NCBI GenBank assembly: GCA_949283535.1
Contig: CASDTC010000003.1
Location: 2,052-66,051 of the forward strand
DNA: 64,000 bases
Source of the DNA: an uncultured Pseudomonadota bacterium
GTDB taxonomy: Bacteria > Pseudomonadota > Alphaproteobacteria > Rs-D84
Direction of reading: 5' to 3'
Part shown: one piece after another, positions 52,702 to 58,192 of the stretch
Numbering within the stretch: the stretch's first letter is position 1
Layout: the number at the start of each line of letters is the position of its first letter
Made by a program: the position numbers and the translations under genes
The notes under the pieces: generated by a model
What the model saw: the letters and a program-made list of their open reading frames with translations, nothing else
Told to the model about the DNA's origin: nothing
Databases searched by the model: none

Positions 52702-54690
52702 GTGAATAAAAAAATATTTGATCTTCAAAGTAATTATAAACCCATGGGTGATCAGCCCCAGGCAATTTCTGAATTGGTTGCCGGGGTTCGTGATGGTCGC
52801 CGCAGCCAGGTTTTATTGGGGGTGACTGGGTCTGGCAAGACATTTACCATGGCAAATGTTATTGCTGAATTGGGACGACCGGCACTGATTATGGCGCCAA
52901 ATAAAATATTAGCGGCACAGTTATATACCGAAATGAAATCGTTTTTTCCAAATAATCATGTTGAATACTTTGTGTCGTATTATGATTATTATCAGCCAGA
53001 GGCATATTTACCAACCACGGATACATATATTGATAAAGACGCATCGATAAATGAACAGTTGGATCGTATGCGGCACAGTGCAACGCGTGCAATGCTGGAA
53101 GAACGCGATGTCGTTGTTGTGTCGTCTGTATCATCAATTTATGGTATGGGGTCGCCAGAACAATATGCCGGTATGAAATTGGTTTTGCATGCGGGCGATA
53201 AAATCAGCATATCAGATGTTATGCATTCGTTGGTTGATATTCAATATAAACGAAATGATATGGCATTTGAACGCGGTGATTTTCGCGTACGCGGTGATAG
53301 CTTGGATATATTTCCATCACATTCCCAGGACAGGGCGTGGAAATTGTCTTTCTGGGGTGATGAAATCGAAGAAATTTGGGAATTTGATACTTTAACGGGT
53401 GCGAAATTACAAAAATTGGACAGAATTGCTGTATATCCAAATACTCACTATGCAACGCCAATGCCATCAATTTTACAGGCAATTGGGCAAATTCGTGATG
53501 ATTTAAAAGACAGGCTGGAATACTTTCATGAAAATATGAAGTATATCGAAGAACAGCGTTTGCGTGAACGCGTGAACTTTGATATTGAAATGATGGAATC
53601 AACCGGGATATGTCGCGGAATTGAAAATTATTCCAGATATTTATCAGGACGCGCGCCCGGGCAACCACCGCCAACATTGTTTGAATATTTACCGCGTGAT
53701 GCAATTTTATTTGTTGATGAAAGCCATGTAACGATACCGCAAATTGCCGCAATGTCACGCGGTGACCGGGCGCGTAAAGAAACACTGGCACAATATGGGT
53801 TTCGTTTGCCAGCGTGCATTGATAACAGACCGTTGACATTTGAAGAATGGGATGCATTACGCCCACAGAGTATTTTTGTATCTGCAACACCTGCACAATG
53901 GGAATTGGAACAATCGGGTGGAATTGTATCAGAACAGGTTATCAGACCAACTGGATTGTTGGATCCAGAATGTCAGGTTCGTCCCACAACGCACCAGGTT
54001 GATGATTTATTGGGCGAAGTTAAAAAGGTTCAGGGACGCGTTCTGGTTACAACATTAACAAAAAAAATGGCAGAACAATTAACCGACTATTTCGTTGAAA
54101 ATGGGGTGCGGGCAAAATATCTGCACAGTGATATTGAAACGCTGGAACGAATTGAATTATTGCGCGATTTGCGTTTGGGAAGATTCGATGTATTGGTTGG
54201 AATTAACCTGTTGCGCGAAGGTTTGGATGTGCCAGAATGTGAACTGGTTGCGATTATGGATGCGGATAAAGAAGGGTTCTTGCGTTCAACGCGCAGTTTA
54301 ATTCAGACAATTGGGCGCGCGGCGCGTAATGCAAATGGACGGGTGATTTTATATGCAGATAAAATTACAGATTCTATGCAGGCAGCGTTATCAGAAACCG
54401 CGCGGCGTCGTGAAAAGCAAATGGCGTATAATCGCGAACACAATATAACACCAAAAACTGTATCCAAGGCAGTATTTGCAGAGGTTGGCGATAAAGCCGA
54501 AAAAACAGATAAAAAGCGTCGTTTTGTTTATACGCGTGATGGTGTTATGGATGCAGATACTTTACGCAAAGAAATCAAGAAATTAAATAAGCAAATGCGT
54601 GATGCCGCAGAAAATCTGGAATTTGAACGGGCGGCAGAACTGCGCGATGCAATCCATAAAATGGAAGATGATTTATTGTTGTTGGAGTAG
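52702..54690 (+). CDS. uvrB: excinuclease ABC subunit B
   Basis: It uses a GTG start. It has Walker A (GVTGSGKT), helicase motifs and a C-terminal UVR domain ([13 protein letters not shown]). Confidence 0.95.
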
Positions 54691-54694
54691 GGGT

Positions 54695-55096
54695 ATGAAA
54701 TCAGAATACGATTTAAAAAATATTGATGAAACGCGTGCGTTTGCGCGTGAATTTGCACACAGGCTGCATGCGCCGTGCGTGGTTGCGTTGCATGGCGATT
54801 TGGGTATGGGTAAATCAGAAATTGCGCGAACAATAATCCAAGAATTGCGCGGGGCAGATACGGTTGTGCCCAGTCCGACATTTACAATTGTTCAAAATTA
54901 TGATGGAATTTCGCATTTTGATTTATATCGGGTCGAAGATAAATCAGAACTGACCGAAATTGGATTGCCGTATGCAATGCAAAATGATATAACATTAATT
55001 GAATGGCCAGAAATTGCCGCAGATATATTACCCAACAATACAATTCATATTTTTATAACTGGCAATGGTGATGGACGTAATATTGTTATTAATTAG
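54695..55096 (+). CDS. tsaE: tRNA t6A37 biosynthesis ATPase TsaE
   Basis: The start was trimmed to MKSEYDL. It has the P-loop GDLGMGKSEIAR plus SPTFTIVQ.Y and HFDLYR motifs. Confidence 0.85.
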   Translation: MKSEYDLKNIDETRAFAREFAHRLHAPCVVALHGDLGMGKSEIARTIIQELRGADTVVPSPTFTIVQNYDGISHFDLYRVEDKSELTEIGLPYAMQNDITLIEWPEIAADILPNNTIHIFITGNGDGRNIVIN

Positions 55097-55157
55097 GCAT
55101 AGGAAATTGTACTTGTTGCGATTAACATGTTTGTTATGTAATGCTTATAATGGTTGC

Positions 55158-55296
55158 AGAAAACAACCGTGCAAGTATCTGCATATAATTACTGCATCCC
55201 AGGGCTTTGCTAAGTCCCGAACCCACATCCCTATGGATTCAGCAGAATTCATATCATGCAGTGATTGAAATAAAAAACCGCATTTTGCGGTTTTTT
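55158..55296 (+). ncRNA. candidate small RNA with its own promoter and terminator
   Basis: TTAACA (55122-27) - 18 nt - TATAAT (55146-51) lies upstream. Hairpins include GGTTG-CAGAAAA-CAACC and CTGCAT...ATGCAG. It carries the 27-nt motif at 55216-42, shared with 44427-53, and ends at terminator 55272-96. Confidence 0.35.
55272..55296. terminator. bidirectional intrinsic terminator
   Basis: The sequence is A6-ACCGC-ATTTT-GCGGT-T6, and it overlaps the stop of the ftsA-like gene. Confidence 0.75.
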
Positions 55297-57073
55297 ATTG
55301 TTCAGAATGTTTTAATAAACTTTGTACCGCCAATGGAAAATCATTACTGCGTGCCAGGTATGAACCACTGACCAATAAATCGGCGCCAGCAGTCCAACAT
55401 TTTTGTGCGGTTTCAGCATTTATTCCGCCATCAACAGATATTAAGTATTTTAGCCCATATTTTTTGCGTGTCGCCGCCAATACTGATATTTTATGCAGGC
55501 ATGTGTCGTCAAATTCTTGACCCGCCGCCCCAGGTGGTACAGTCATTATCATTATTTCGTCAATTTCACGCAAAATCGGCTTTAATATTTCTACAGATGA
55601 TTCTGGGTTTAATGCAACGCCCGCGCGTTTTGATGCTGCGCGTACCGAACGAATTGCTGCACGCAGTCCAGATGTATTTGTTGACATTATAACCGTGTCT
55701 GCACCCGCAGAAATTGCGTCATTCGCCCAGACGGTTGGACTTTCCGTCATTAAATGTACATGCAGATGCGCGTTTGTATGTGCGCGTATGTATTTTAATT
55801 CCGCAATACTGCCGGCAATGCGGTCAACATAAAATCCATCCATTATATCGACATGTATCATTGATATGCCGCCCGCCCGGAATAATGAATATGTTTCCGG
55901 ACTTTTCATATTAAAGCATAATGTGCTGGGCATTATGGGTATAAATTTTTTTTGTGGGTGCCGACGCCGGCGGAATATAGACATTATGCGATTACTGAAC
56001 TGTTCAACGCGGGCGTGGCGCATTGCATATTTGTTGCGATGTTCTGATTCTAGATTCCATATGTATGTTGATAATGCACGAACAGATGCGTCAGAATGAT
56101 TGTTCTTTACAGGTATTGAAAAAACATTTTCAACAAATTCATCAATTCCATCAATTTCAGCACCACCGCCAGATATCATTATTGATGATGGTTTATATTT
56201 TGAAAATGCCGCATTTGATGCGTCCTTGATACGGGCGCATATATCGACCATATGTGGTAATATAATGTCATTTACATCGGCGCGTGAAAAATCGTATGCC
56301 GTGTCTGCCGGGGTAAATCTGTCCATTTCGCGTGGCATTAATCCGGCGACATTGCGTTTTATTCGGTCGGCATCATCAAAATCAATATTTAATTTTTTTG
56401 ATATATCATTTGTTATATCTGTCCCACCAACAGATATTTTTGCATGCCATACGGGACCACGATCCATCCAAATAGATGCGCTGGTAAATTTTGCGCCAAA
56501 ATCAATAAACATTGTTGTTTGTTTTTTGGGGCGAAATACCGAATTTTGCAAAAATTGTGGGTCGTAAAATGCGTCTGGTTGAATATGGGCATGGCGCAGA
56601 TTGGACCCCAGTTCATCGATTTGTGCATATGAATAAAATATTACACCAAATGCAGATATTAATTGTCGGTCTGTATGACCAATTGGTGAAAACATATTTC
56701 GTGCGGTTGGTGTATCGTATCGCAGTGGAAATATATGCATTGGGAAATATCCGTCTGGTGGGGTAATTTGTGAAATTTGCGTTCGAACATCTGATACAGT
56801 TATTTTATGTTCACCATGCCAAATCGTATTTTTCGCAATCATTTCAAATTTTGATTGCCCAAAATCACCCGTAATATATGCAGAATCAAAATGCGATCCG
56901 ATTTGTTGTTCCAGTTCGTCAATTACAGACTTTAATGCAAATACTGTATCAAAACTGTCAACGGCATGCATTGCAGATTGAACAATTCGACCGCCCAGTA
57001 CATGATGTGCAATGCCGCGTACGCAGTGCGTGCCAACATCCAGACATAAAAAAGTTGAATCCCCCAGGTTCAT
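55295..57073 (-). CDS. ftsA: FtsA-like actin-fold protein fused in frame to a ribulose-phosphate 3-epimerase-like TIM barrel
   Basis: The N-terminal ~375 aa are FtsA-like (LCLDVGTHCVRG, IDFGAKFTS, ISGGGAEIDGIDEFVENVFSIPV). The C-terminal ~215 aa are Rpe-like (IMPSTLCFNM, HVDIMDGFYV, HLMTE, ISVDGGIN). There is no stop between the two parts. Confidence 0.7.
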   Translation of the reverse strand: MNLGDSTFLCLDVGTHCVRGIAHHVLGGRIVQSAMHAVDSFDTVFALKSVIDELEQQIGSHFDSAYITGDFGQSKFEMIAKNTIWHGEHKITVSDVRTQISQITPPDGYFPMHIFPLRYDTPTARNMFSPIGHTDRQLISAFGVIFYSYAQIDELGSNLRHAHIQPDAFYDPQFLQNSVFRPKKQTTMFIDFGAKFTSASIWMDRGPVWHAKISVGGTDITNDISKKLNIDFDDADRIKRNVAGLMPREMDRFTPADTAYDFSRADVNDIILPHMVDICARIKDASNAAFSKYKPSSIMISGGGAEIDGIDEFVENVFSIPVKNNHSDASVRALSTYIWNLESEHRNKYAMRHARVEQFSNRIMSIFRRRRHPQKKFIPIMPSTLCFNMKSPETYSLFRAGGISMIHVDIMDGFYVDRIAGSIAELKYIRAHTNAHLHVHLMTESPTVWANDAISAGADTVIMSTNTSGLRAAIRSVRAASKRAGVALNPESSVEILKPILREIDEIMIMTVPPGAAGQEFDDTCLHKISVLAATRKKYGLKYLISVDGGINAETAQKCWTAGADLLVSGSYLARSNDFPLAVQSLLKHSEQ

Positions 57074-57081
57074 TATAATTT

Positions 57082-57762
57082 TTATTTTACTAATATTCGC
57101 GCGTCATCGCGCATGTCAATTATTTCCAATTTTTTTGATAAAATTCCATGGTTTTTATCCAATACCAATAAACTTGCCACGGCATCAGATGGATTTTTTT
57201 CTGGCAACATGACCGTTATACCACCCGTTGTGTGAATGTTCCAACGGCGTTCTTCGACCCATTCGATATAATCCAGGTTATTAATCATGCTGTGTGCAGT
57301 TGATGTTATTGCCGATAAATCATTTGGCAATTCGCCACGAAATACAACAGTGCCGGGTGTGCGTACATCTGATGGGCGATTTATAATTGTGCCGTCTGAT
57401 GATAATGGATAATACTGCAATCCATCTGTCCATTGGGCAATTGCCTGGTATAATTCAACGCGTACAGATAAATTGCCATTTGGTGTGCGGCGAACCGCAG
57501 ATGCGCGTACACCAGGTACGGCACCGATGCGTGCGTTTATTGTATTCAGATCTGTGCGGAATGCATTTGTACCCGGTGCCACAGCCGCCGCCGCCGCAAC
57601 CGATGTCAGATCTTTGTTTGGCATGTCCGCAGATATTGATATGCGGCGTACATGTGCAATTTCGCCGCGGCCCATATATGTCATAACAATTCGGGTCGCA
57701 AAATATACCGACAATATTATCGCAATAACAAAATACAGCCAAAACCAAATGCTTCGTTTCAT
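57082..57762 (-). CDS. ftsQ: cell division protein FtsQ
   Basis: The start was trimmed to MKRSIWFWLYF. It has a single TM followed by POTRA and FtsQ beta domains, and lies immediately upstream of the ftsA-like gene. Confidence 0.7.
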   Translation of the reverse strand: MKRSIWFWLYFVIAIILSVYFATRIVMTYMGRGEIAHVRRISISADMPNKDLTSVAAAAAVAPGTNAFRTDLNTINARIGAVPGVRASAVRRTPNGNLSVRVELYQAIAQWTDGLQYYPLSSDGTIINRPSDVRTPGTVVFRGELPNDLSAITSTAHSMINNLDYIEWVEERRWNIHTTGGITVMLPEKNPSDAVASLLVLDKNHGILSKKLEIIDMRDDARILVK

Positions 57763-57811
57763 GTGTGCAATTATACCATAAATTGTTTTGATTGGAAAGC
57801 AGACAAAATTT

Positions 57812-58192
57812 TTAACTGGCGCGTAATAAATATCCGCGTCGGAACATGCATTTACGATATGAACCAACTGATTTTGATGTTGTATTACGCGGTACAGATA
57901 ATAATGCGCGTTGACCAACATCCCTGTATTCGTTCGACTGGAATGTTACCCACAGTCCGTCCCAATCTGGCATAATGCTGCTTTGGTTCGGGGACAACAG
58001 TTTTGAAATACGCGAACGCGGCATATATGATGGCTTGTCAATACCCAGGCATGCCTTGTGATCACGGACAAACTGTTCCATTGTTACGGATTCGTTTTCC
58101 CAGTTTAATATTGTCGCGTCATCAATACTGCCCCGATTTACGGACGCGCATGCAGTTAGTGCTAGTATTAGAGGCAGGTATTTAATTCTCAT
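57812..58192 (-). CDS. lipoprotein (126 aa)
   Basis: It has a signal peptide with lipobox LTAC. Confidence 0.55.
   Translation of the reverse strand: MRIKYLPLILALTACASVNRGSIDDATILNWENESVTMEQFVRDHKACLGIDKPSYMPRSRISKLLSPNQSSIMPDWDGLWVTFQSNEYRDVGQRALLSVPRNTTSKSVGSYRKCMFRRGYLLRAS

Follow-up and report, generated by a model that had tools for sequence, protein, structure and literature searches.

The 64-kb stretch of DNA analysed here (hereafter the window) lies on contig CASDTC010000003.1 in the 830-kb metagenome-assembled genome (MAG) of an uncultured alphaproteobacterium of the order Rs-D84. On its reverse strand, 8 nt past the end of the cell division gene ftsQ, the window carries an open reading frame (ORF) whose predicted product joins an FtsA-like, actin-fold division protein to a ribulose-phosphate 3-epimerase (Rpe). 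A first reading of the DNA, referred to below as the initial annotation, had described a single ORF of 592 codons directly downstream of ftsQ, and both the ORF listing, which holds exactly one such frame at this position, and the Pfam match of the upstream gene to FtsQ agree with it. All FtsA and Rpe motifs quoted at that time were found in the ORF. There is also, as had been reported, no stop codon at the junction of the two halves, and an internal ATG (Met381, at 55931-55933) is present near the boundary. The fusion gene directly follows ftsQ not only in the window but also in the loci of two relatives (L111 and L112). The features of the locus are collected in Table 1.

Table 1. Features of the fusion locus, in window coordinates.
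Feature	Position	Strand	Description and evidence
ftsA::rpe fusion gene	55295..57073	(-)	592 codons plus TAA stop at 55297-55295; ORF listing, Pfam, NCBIfam, motifs
FtsA actin-fold core, residues 1-340	56054..57073	(-)	Subdomains 1A/1C/2A/2B; AlphaFold2 model, Foldseek, profiles, motifs
Long helix, residues 343-367	55973..56047	(-)	DSSP on AlphaFold2 model
Amphipathic basic helix end FSNRIMSIFRR, residues 356-366	55976-56008	(-)	Hydrophobic moment
Disordered Arg/Lys/Pro-rich tether RHPQKK..., residues 368-375	55949..55972	(-)	pLDDT <50
Rpe (beta/alpha)8 barrel, residues 377-592	55298..55945	(-)	Opens at strand 1, FIPIMPSTLCFNM; Pfam, NCBIfam, Foldseek
ftsQ	57082..57921	(-)	Longest ORF 279 aa; Pfam FtsQ_DivIB_C E 1e-9, POTRA_1 weak
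Intrinsic-terminator-like hairpin	55272..55290	(-)	CCGCA-AAA-TGCGG then T6, 5 nt past the stop; read directly from the sequence

The genome is a draft metagenome assembly and a run of eight adenines (A8, 55946-55953, in Gln-Lys-Lys codons) sits at the junction, so that a sequencing or assembly error could in principle conceal a stop codon or a frameshift between two ordinary genes. In DNA contigs from two independent public runs (X2, 55352-58000; X5, 55100-58000) only substitutions and no gaps were seen, and a contig of a third run, X4, covering 55663-56083, was also gap-free. The runs giving contigs over the locus are bird, chicken and manure metagenomes. In none of the three was an indel found at the A8 run, and the sole indel variants in these contigs, at 55278 and 55289, lie outside the ORF. 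A scan of GTDB species genomes yielded 301 relatives, and a full-length match was present in all 80 of the 80 that were retrieved. By their record titles these are "Candidatus Enterousia" and Alphaproteobacteria MAGs from chicken, ruminant, horse and human gut, and the circular long-read genome OZ007020.1 is among those carrying the full-length match. In a collection of 5.8 billion proteins, 803 clusters at 90% identity were matched, and all 120 of the 120 listed had the fusion architecture or a shortened copy of it; where the public annotation gives a name, it is only "ribulose-phosphate 3-epimerase". The same open frame thus recurs in hundreds of independently assembled gut genomes, closed long-read ones included, and the homopolymer is missing at the junction in most homologues. 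An error hiding a stop or a frameshift is ruled out by the gap-free contigs of the three runs and by the many independent genomes, and we give an artefact practically no weight; the gene is a genuine in-frame fusion, one of the possibilities raised in the initial annotation.

The protein was modelled with AlphaFold2 on an alignment of 58 sequences, with a mean predicted local distance difference test score (pLDDT) of 90.9, and FtsA-type and Rpe-type folds were the top structural matches of the two halves. In the FtsA core the pLDDT was mostly above 90. The top 19 Foldseek matches in the PDB were all FtsA, with template modelling (TM) scores, TM(target), of 0.65-0.73 over 352-390 alignment columns. 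The best of these structures, 3WT0, 1E4G, 7Q6F and 4A2A, reached TM(target) 0.69-0.73, against 0.53-0.55 for PilM. From the model, ORF residues 1-340 are predicted to form an actin/Hsp70-type ATPase fold with the 1C topology specific to FtsA. The Pfam family FtsA (PF14450) matched at residues 189-327 with 51.1 bits (cut-off 31.8), and PDB profile matches to FtsA had E-values from 9e-14 to 1e-8. The nucleotide motifs of this half are LDVG (D12, G14), IDFGA (D191, G193) and SGGGA (G302-G303), and the corresponding phosphate-1, phosphate-2 and adenosine residues D12, G14, D191, G193, G302 and G303 do not vary among 58 Enterousia sequences. No second FtsA was found in the genome, the fusion being the sole match.

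The Rpe half was matched by Pfam Ribul_P_3_epim (PF00834) at residues 395-573 with 143.8 bits (cut-off 21.1) and by the NCBIfam Rpe subfamily NF004076 at residues 380-587 with 172.1 bits (cut-off 165); it was below the cut-off in TIGR01163 (146 vs 212.6) and in AlsE NF007266 (140 vs 271). The homology of both halves proposed initially agrees with the Pfam and structure matches. A profile alignment to Rpe of S. pyogenes (2FLI) ran from end to end (6-214 of 220, E 1e-45) and paired the first strand of 2FLI, IAPSIL, with ILPSTL of the fusion. Foldseek superposed the barrel model on 2FLI with a TM(target) of 0.90 and a root-mean-square deviation of 1.8-2.1 A at 34% identity. The catalytic and metal-binding tetrad, H407 and D409 (HVDIMDG), H440 (HVHLM) and D548 (VDGG), occupies the positions of the active-site motifs of 2FLI, and the stretches PGxxGQ, DGG and SGS, which bind phosphate in Rpe, stand where they are expected. 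The tetrad residues are invariant in the 58 aligned homologues and kept in 17 of 18 loci checked from 16 other genera of the family. With the tetrad intact and a barrel this close to 2FLI, the suggestion that the Rpe is degenerate was not upheld. The deviation on which attention had been drawn, DGFYV instead of DGHFVPN, is real: DGFYVDR is a family-specific change from DGxFVPN after strand 2. However, it adjoins the catalytic residues and leaves them untouched.

A separate rpe, which the initial annotation proposed to look for, was not found in the genome; the fusion is its only Rpe match. Transketolase (C7 62521-64311; TIGR00232 559 bits, cut-off 682) and RpiB (C7 51334-51828; NF004051 136 bits, cut-off 135) are encoded elsewhere, and a published reconstruction of Rs-D84 metabolism lists the same pentose-phosphate gene set (PMC12306168). 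Since the fusion holds the sole Rpe and both transketolase and RpiB are present, the barrel is most simply read as a housekeeping epimerase that works with them and is predicted to be catalytically competent. The ratio of nonsynonymous to synonymous substitution rates (dN/dS), taken as the median over 42 sequence pairs within Enterousia with dS 0.1-1.2, was 0.06 for the FtsA core, 0.05 for the Rpe barrel and 0.20 for the linker between them. By these values both halves appear to be under strong purifying selection and neither seems to be decaying in Enterousia.

The FtsA half had been thought to lack an obvious amphipathic membrane-targeting helix, with the Rpe domain occupying its place. This part of the initial annotation has to be revised. 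The model contains a long helix just past the core and a basic tether after it, and the hydrophobic moment calculated for the end of the helix, FSNRIMSIFRR, is 0.77, which ranks at the 99th percentile among the protein's 11-mers. Across 80 homologues the equivalent segment has a median moment of 0.67 (97th percentile); the FtsA tails of sister families give 0.64-0.83, and the tail of E. coli FtsA gives 0.78. The stand-alone FtsA proteins of the sister families stop at the same position, in amphipathic tails of the classical kind, ...KVKKWIDDNF, ...LKNWIKEKL and ...LHRWIKEYL, where the Enterousia consensus ...NWI.KIFHRKPKK runs directly into Rpe strand 1, FIPILPSTLCFDM. The length of the linker is nearly constant in 80 sequences, with gaps of one residue only. 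The membrane-targeting helix of FtsA is thus predicted to be kept, now internal instead of C-terminal.

The same junction bears on whether the ORF makes one protein or two. Separate proteins could be produced by an internal start at Met381, by proteolysis of the tether, which is rich in Lys and Arg and predicted to be disordered, or by slippage at the A8 run, which would end FtsA past its membrane helix. In the window an ATG stands exactly at barrel strand 1, 13 nt past the A8 run, and both alternative frames meet a stop 3-10 codons past the run. However, of 80 homologues only 34 have ATG at the position of Met381, the others having TTA (23), TTG (19) or CTG (4), and no Shine-Dalgarno-like or purine-rich sequence was found upstream of Met381 in the window. 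A conserved internal start was ruled out on these two grounds. Among the 80 homologues the longest A run in the linker varies from 1 to 8, with 2 in the closest relative (91% identical), and the contigs, those from RNA-derived libraries included, show no indel at the run; given the variable run length, programmed slippage was also ruled out as a conserved mechanism. Apparently there is no conserved device for making separate proteins, a single polypeptide is favoured, and we regard the production of two proteins as very improbable. At the transcript level, contigs of a chicken-gut metatranscriptome (X14) fall on both halves, and record 4 of these (56731-57249) crosses the boundary between ftsQ and the fusion gene.

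The distribution of the fusion was followed in 301 genomes of the order Rs-D84, 272 of them from the family that carries it (f1, comprising Ca. Enterousia and 16 further GTDB genera) and 29 from five sister families. A match was found in 267 of the 272, and the five genomes without one are 70-93% complete. The matches listed for the family were all full-length and colinear, as were 18 of 18 loci checked across the 16 other genera, down to 30% identity. In the five sister families, ftsA and rpe are matched by two distinct genes. Relatives within the family therefore share the architecture and the sister families have two genes, which answers the question, raised initially, of what related genomes contain.

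Ten sister loci were retrieved with ftsA (L100-L109). In nine of these rpe comes after ftsA, and ftsQ is upstream of ftsA in the five loci of family f3 where it was detected by blastp. In L101 and L102 the stop codon of ftsA shares 1 nt with the start codon of rpe, and in L100 and L109 the longest ORFs of the two genes have 17-22 nt in common. Because the two genes abut or overlap in these four of the ten loci, the fusion probably arose when a translationally coupled ftsA-rpe junction lost its ftsA stop codon, and the initial proposal that a lost stop merged two genes fits these neighbours. In a tree of Rpe, the fused domains group on the same side of a branch supported at 100/99, which agrees with a single origin of the fusion. 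In a phmmer search of 1.84 billion representatives the architecture was seen only in about 30 clusters, as colinear copies or fragments, after which ordinary Rpe proteins of about 220 aa follow; no independent FtsA-Rpe fusion from elsewhere was among these best matches, and no description of such a fusion was found in the literature. Three f3 loci (L103:6630-8411, L105:3788-5557 and L106:6493-8295) have a protein of 590-600 aa between ftsA and rpe; it is of the ATP-binding cassette (ABC) type, with a membrane domain at its N-terminus and an ATPase that is degenerate.

The initial annotation had also remarked that no ftsZ follows the fusion gene. The remark holds and was understated, as no FtsZ was found by TIGR00065 anywhere in the genome, in 24 congeners, or in any of the 272 sampled genomes of the family (0/272), among them G075 and G202, each a single contig, and many that are 97-100% complete. 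Within the genome itself, a search with an order-specific hidden Markov model (HMM) of sister FtsZs (--max), a tblastn search and the use of an FtsZ-like protein from the sister-family genome G027 as a bridge were equally negative. FtsZ was detected in 26 of the 29 sister-family genomes; of the three without a match, one is 73% complete and one has a congener bearing FtsZ. A single 17-bit "FtsZ" match, in G173, was rejected as a secreted Ala/Gly-rich protein. Taken by family, presence of the fusion goes with absence of FtsZ over the 301 genomes. With no detectable FtsZ to hold, the FtsA half would be unable to serve as a tether of the Z ring. No literature on a loss of FtsZ in Rs-D84 was found. 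Judged from the genomes sampled, this family-wide absence beside a retained, fused FtsA appears to be a more surprising fact than the fusion itself. In G027 (family f4), the only FtsZ-like protein is a degenerate one of 422 aa (L132:1022-2287, minus strand) with 31 bits to TIGR00065 and no GGGTGSG, and neither FtsA nor Rpe was matched there. This genome may represent a second, independent erosion of the FtsZ system in the order.

Other parts of the division and elongation machinery are retained, as are genes of peptidoglycan synthesis. The genome keeps FtsQ, FtsK, MreB, RodA and penicillin-binding protein 2 (PBP2), a second protein of the shape, elongation, division and sporulation (SEDS) family which scores best as FtsW and adjoins mraY and murG, and a second class-B PBP of the FtsI/SpoVD type with a weak FtsL-like ORF before it. 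FtsE (G000:C13:22105-22968) scored 261 bits, near the FtsE cut-off and far above other ABC ATPases, and has a weak FtsX-like neighbour (G000:C13:21265-22101). ZapA (G000:C4:55514-55699) exceeded the cut-off of Pfam in 24 out of 25 genomes of Enterousia. Next to zapA there is an ORF of at least 346 aa (G000:C4 ~55963-57000; L134:1464-2501, plus strand), with a short, structured N-terminus (MKTKIIYISGNELFK...), a very long low-complexity stretch that is acidic and a basic patch at the C-terminus. No true MinD occurs anywhere in the order. Where f3 and f2 genomes have a full-length MipZ (260-308 bits), it mostly lies some 5 kb away from ftsZ, for example at G040:C2:152680-153459, with further loci at G039:C11:15442-16221 and G026:C22:38624-39403; it is absent from the fusion family and from families f5 and f6, and FtsZ-bearing sister families are among those without it. 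A co-loss of FtsZ partners was considered as support for the loss of FtsZ and set aside, because the picture is mixed: ZapA and FtsE are kept, and MipZ is gone elsewhere as well.

We consider it likely that the gene encodes one bifunctional polypeptide, consisting of an FtsA core, an internal amphipathic helix, a basic tether and a full Rpe barrel, which was born of ftsA stop loss in the ancestor of the family and whose FtsA half would act in the manner of MreB. The bifunctional protein is argued for by the intact motifs, the strong purifying selection and the single-copy status of the halves. The ancestor of Rs-D84 would have possessed an ftsQ-ftsA-rpe operon with the ftsA stop abutting or overlapping the rpe start, and in the ancestor of the fusion family this stop would have been lost, making two frames one. 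As suggested by motifs, selection and copy number, the Rpe half would be the sole ribulose 5-phosphate 3-epimerase of the cell, beside transketolase and RpiB. The FtsA half would be a nucleotide-binding, membrane-associated, actin-like division protein. FtsA has been described to form MreB-like antiparallel double filaments (PMC7613929), and membrane-bound filaments of this kind might position and orient the FtsQL-FtsWI septal synthase. The Rpe barrel would be kept close to the membrane, where it might be a passenger that is tolerated or a further module through which the protein self-associates.

Several observations weigh against this proposal. The NCBIfam equivalog for ftsA, TIGR01174, matched residues 43-325 with an E-value of 7e-19 and only 68.1 bits, compared with a cut-off of 175.85. 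Genera g15 and g13 are without the FtsA phosphate-binding Asp residues, their ORF being still intact, and the copy in G101 is without H407, D409 and D548 of Rpe and without the phosphate-1, phosphate-2 and adenosine motifs of FtsA; from these motif losses, neither ATP binding nor epimerase activity would be universally required in the family. ZapA, normally a partner of the Z ring, FtsE and its weak FtsX-like neighbour are kept in genomes where no FtsZ was detected, and either ZapA and FtsE would have roles independent of FtsZ or a tubulin-fold protein beyond sequence detection would be present. The Rpe tree leaves the placement of the fused Rpe relative to that of the sister families open at its deeper nodes, and since these lack resolution, an origin in situ is argued from synteny alone. 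The metatranscriptome contigs reach both halves and not the junction itself, and the genomes are all MAGs of uncultured organisms. The G101 copy is a homologue of 591 aa (L126:1498-3270, minus strand) with 30% identity and an intact frame; the genome is labelled g16, and the other g16 genomes have normal fusion copies of about 60% identity.

Given the missing FtsZ, the FtsA half could be a mere vestige which serves as an anchor or folding partner for an essential Rpe, or which decays slowly. The residues lost in g15, g13 and one g16 genome, where the phosphate-1 or phosphate-2 Asp/Gly positions are changed, would agree with this, and so would the state of subdomain 2B, the FtsZ-binding subdomain in T. 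maritima FtsA. (The entry 4A2A is a complex of FtsA with an FtsZ peptide from that species.) Compared with the sister families, the fusion family has a subdomain 2B that is shorter by about 10 residues. This subdomain is also relatively less conserved: in a crude comparison at the level of subdomains rather than residues, 2B scored 0.27 vs 0.28-0.36 for the other subdomains in the fusion family, and 0.33 vs 0.28-0.34 in the sister families. This weak signal would fit a lost constraint of FtsZ binding. On the other hand, the dN/dS of the FtsA core in Enterousia is as low as that of the enzyme half and its motifs are invariant there, the gene has stayed right after ftsQ in the window and in both relatives' loci, and the rest of the late divisome has been kept. 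A vestigial FtsA half is therefore improbable in our estimate.

It is also conceivable that the barrel has been co-opted into the division scaffold, as an oligomerisation hub by which FtsA is clustered at the membrane or as a sensor of pentose phosphates linking division with metabolism. Rpe enzymes are dimers or hexamers, and solved Rpe entries hold several like chains, for instance 12 in 2FLI. The coincidence of the fusion with the absence of FtsZ by family and the near-fixed linker, suggesting a constrained geometry, would suit such a role, as would the G101 copy, which keeps the barrel ORF after loss of three of the four catalytic residues. However, the G101 copy has lost its FtsA motifs too and may be a decaying gene. 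The catalytic tetrad is kept in nearly all genera, and an enzyme role for the only Rpe, together with transketolase and RpiB, suffices to explain this. Moreover, the sister families pair ftsA with rpe while keeping FtsZ, so that the linkage is older than the loss of FtsZ, and a predicted TM score (pTM) of 0.62 with high pLDDT suggests that the two domains have no fixed packing. Weighing these points we regard co-option of the barrel as unlikely, although it is the alternative to a bifunctional protein that we would place first.

A more far-reaching scenario concerns the whole family. A walled, gut-dwelling family of Alphaproteobacteria would divide without FtsZ; FtsA filaments, held to the membrane through the internal helix and gathered together by self-association of the barrel, would stand in for the Z ring as scaffold of FtsQL-FtsWI, ZapA and FtsE/FtsX would have been rewired onto FtsA, and the barrel may tie division to the supply of pentose phosphates from a partner organism. 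In its full form this scenario is speculative, and we think it somewhat less probable still than co-option of the barrel.

Canonical FtsA proteins (E. coli; T. maritima, 1E4G/4A2A; S. aureus, 3WQT/3WT0; Vibrio maritimus, 7Q6F) have, like the fusion, an actin fold with the three nucleotide motifs, an amphipathic basic helix past the core, and a gene right after ftsQ. In contrast to them, the fusion is only 14-17% identical to the solved structures and below the TIGR01174 cut-off, its membrane helix is internal, an enzyme of 216 residues has been added, and FtsZ is undetected. Known Rpe proteins (S. pyogenes, 2FLI; potato, 1RPX; human, 3OVP) share the full barrel and the His-Asp-His-Asp tetrad. 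They differ from the fusion in its N-terminal FtsA joined by a basic tether, in the DGFYVDR motif and in the presumed holding of the enzyme at the membrane. The sister loci of Rs-D84 have the same order of ftsA and rpe, with ftsQ before them where detected, which we read as the ancestral state, but they encode two proteins, with a free FtsA tail and an Rpe that begins at its own Met, in genomes that keep FtsZ and in some cases MipZ.

The nearest functional parallel is Chlamydia, a walled bacterium with a small genome and no FtsZ, in which division is directed by MreB (PMC7029139, PMC4643143; reviewed in PMC4164004). Chlamydia and the fusion family alike keep FtsQ, FtsL, FtsK, FtsW/FtsI-type synthases, MreB, RodA and PBP2. 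The family differs in having kept FtsA, as the fusion, together with ZapA and FtsE, and in belonging to another phylum, so that FtsZ would have been lost independently. Chlamydia is not known to keep FtsA. FtsZ is near universal in walled bacteria, the known exceptions being Chlamydiae, most Planctomycetes, some Mollicutes and a few insect symbionts with extreme reduction; the review of bacteria without FtsZ treats Mollicutes, Chlamydiae, Planctomycetes and extreme endosymbionts and contains no such Alphaproteobacteria (PMC4164004). The genome paper on Rs-D84 mentions RodA, MreB and MrdA, and FtsZ and FtsA are absent from its text.

If the proposed reading is correct, the family would be an independent exception within the Alphaproteobacteria, widespread in animal and human guts, that keeps peptidoglycan synthesis, the late divisome, and FtsA in an architecture absent from the literature searched. 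It would offer a natural system for what FtsA does without FtsZ, and would bear on the proposed equivalence of FtsA with MreB and of divisome with elongasome (PMC7613929). The locus would also illustrate cleanly how, while a genome is being reduced, two genes can fuse where their translation is coupled. In practice, annotation only as "ribulose-phosphate 3-epimerase" would lead automated surveys to score such genomes as lacking FtsA.

Turning to the flanks of the fusion gene, a blastp alignment of the ftsQ product to the 229-aa FtsQ ORF of the relative locus L112 begins at query residue 54. Alignments to the shorter FtsQ ORFs of relatives begin at Met54 (57762), the likely true start of ftsQ, and the first 53 codons of the longest ORF (57762-57921) are probably untranslated. 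The transmembrane segment of FtsQ in the window also starts at Met54 (MKRSIWFWLYF...), and the stretch before this codon shares nucleotides with the 3' end of an upstream ORF for a 126-aa lipoprotein (57812-58192). On the other side, the hairpin after the fusion stop, which was not listed by a consensus terminator scan, appears to mark the end of the ftsQ-ftsA::rpe unit. The variants at 55278 and 55289 are single-base insertions in run X4 and fall inside this hairpin. The next gene past the fusion is a convergent ORF of 165 aa at 54599-55096.

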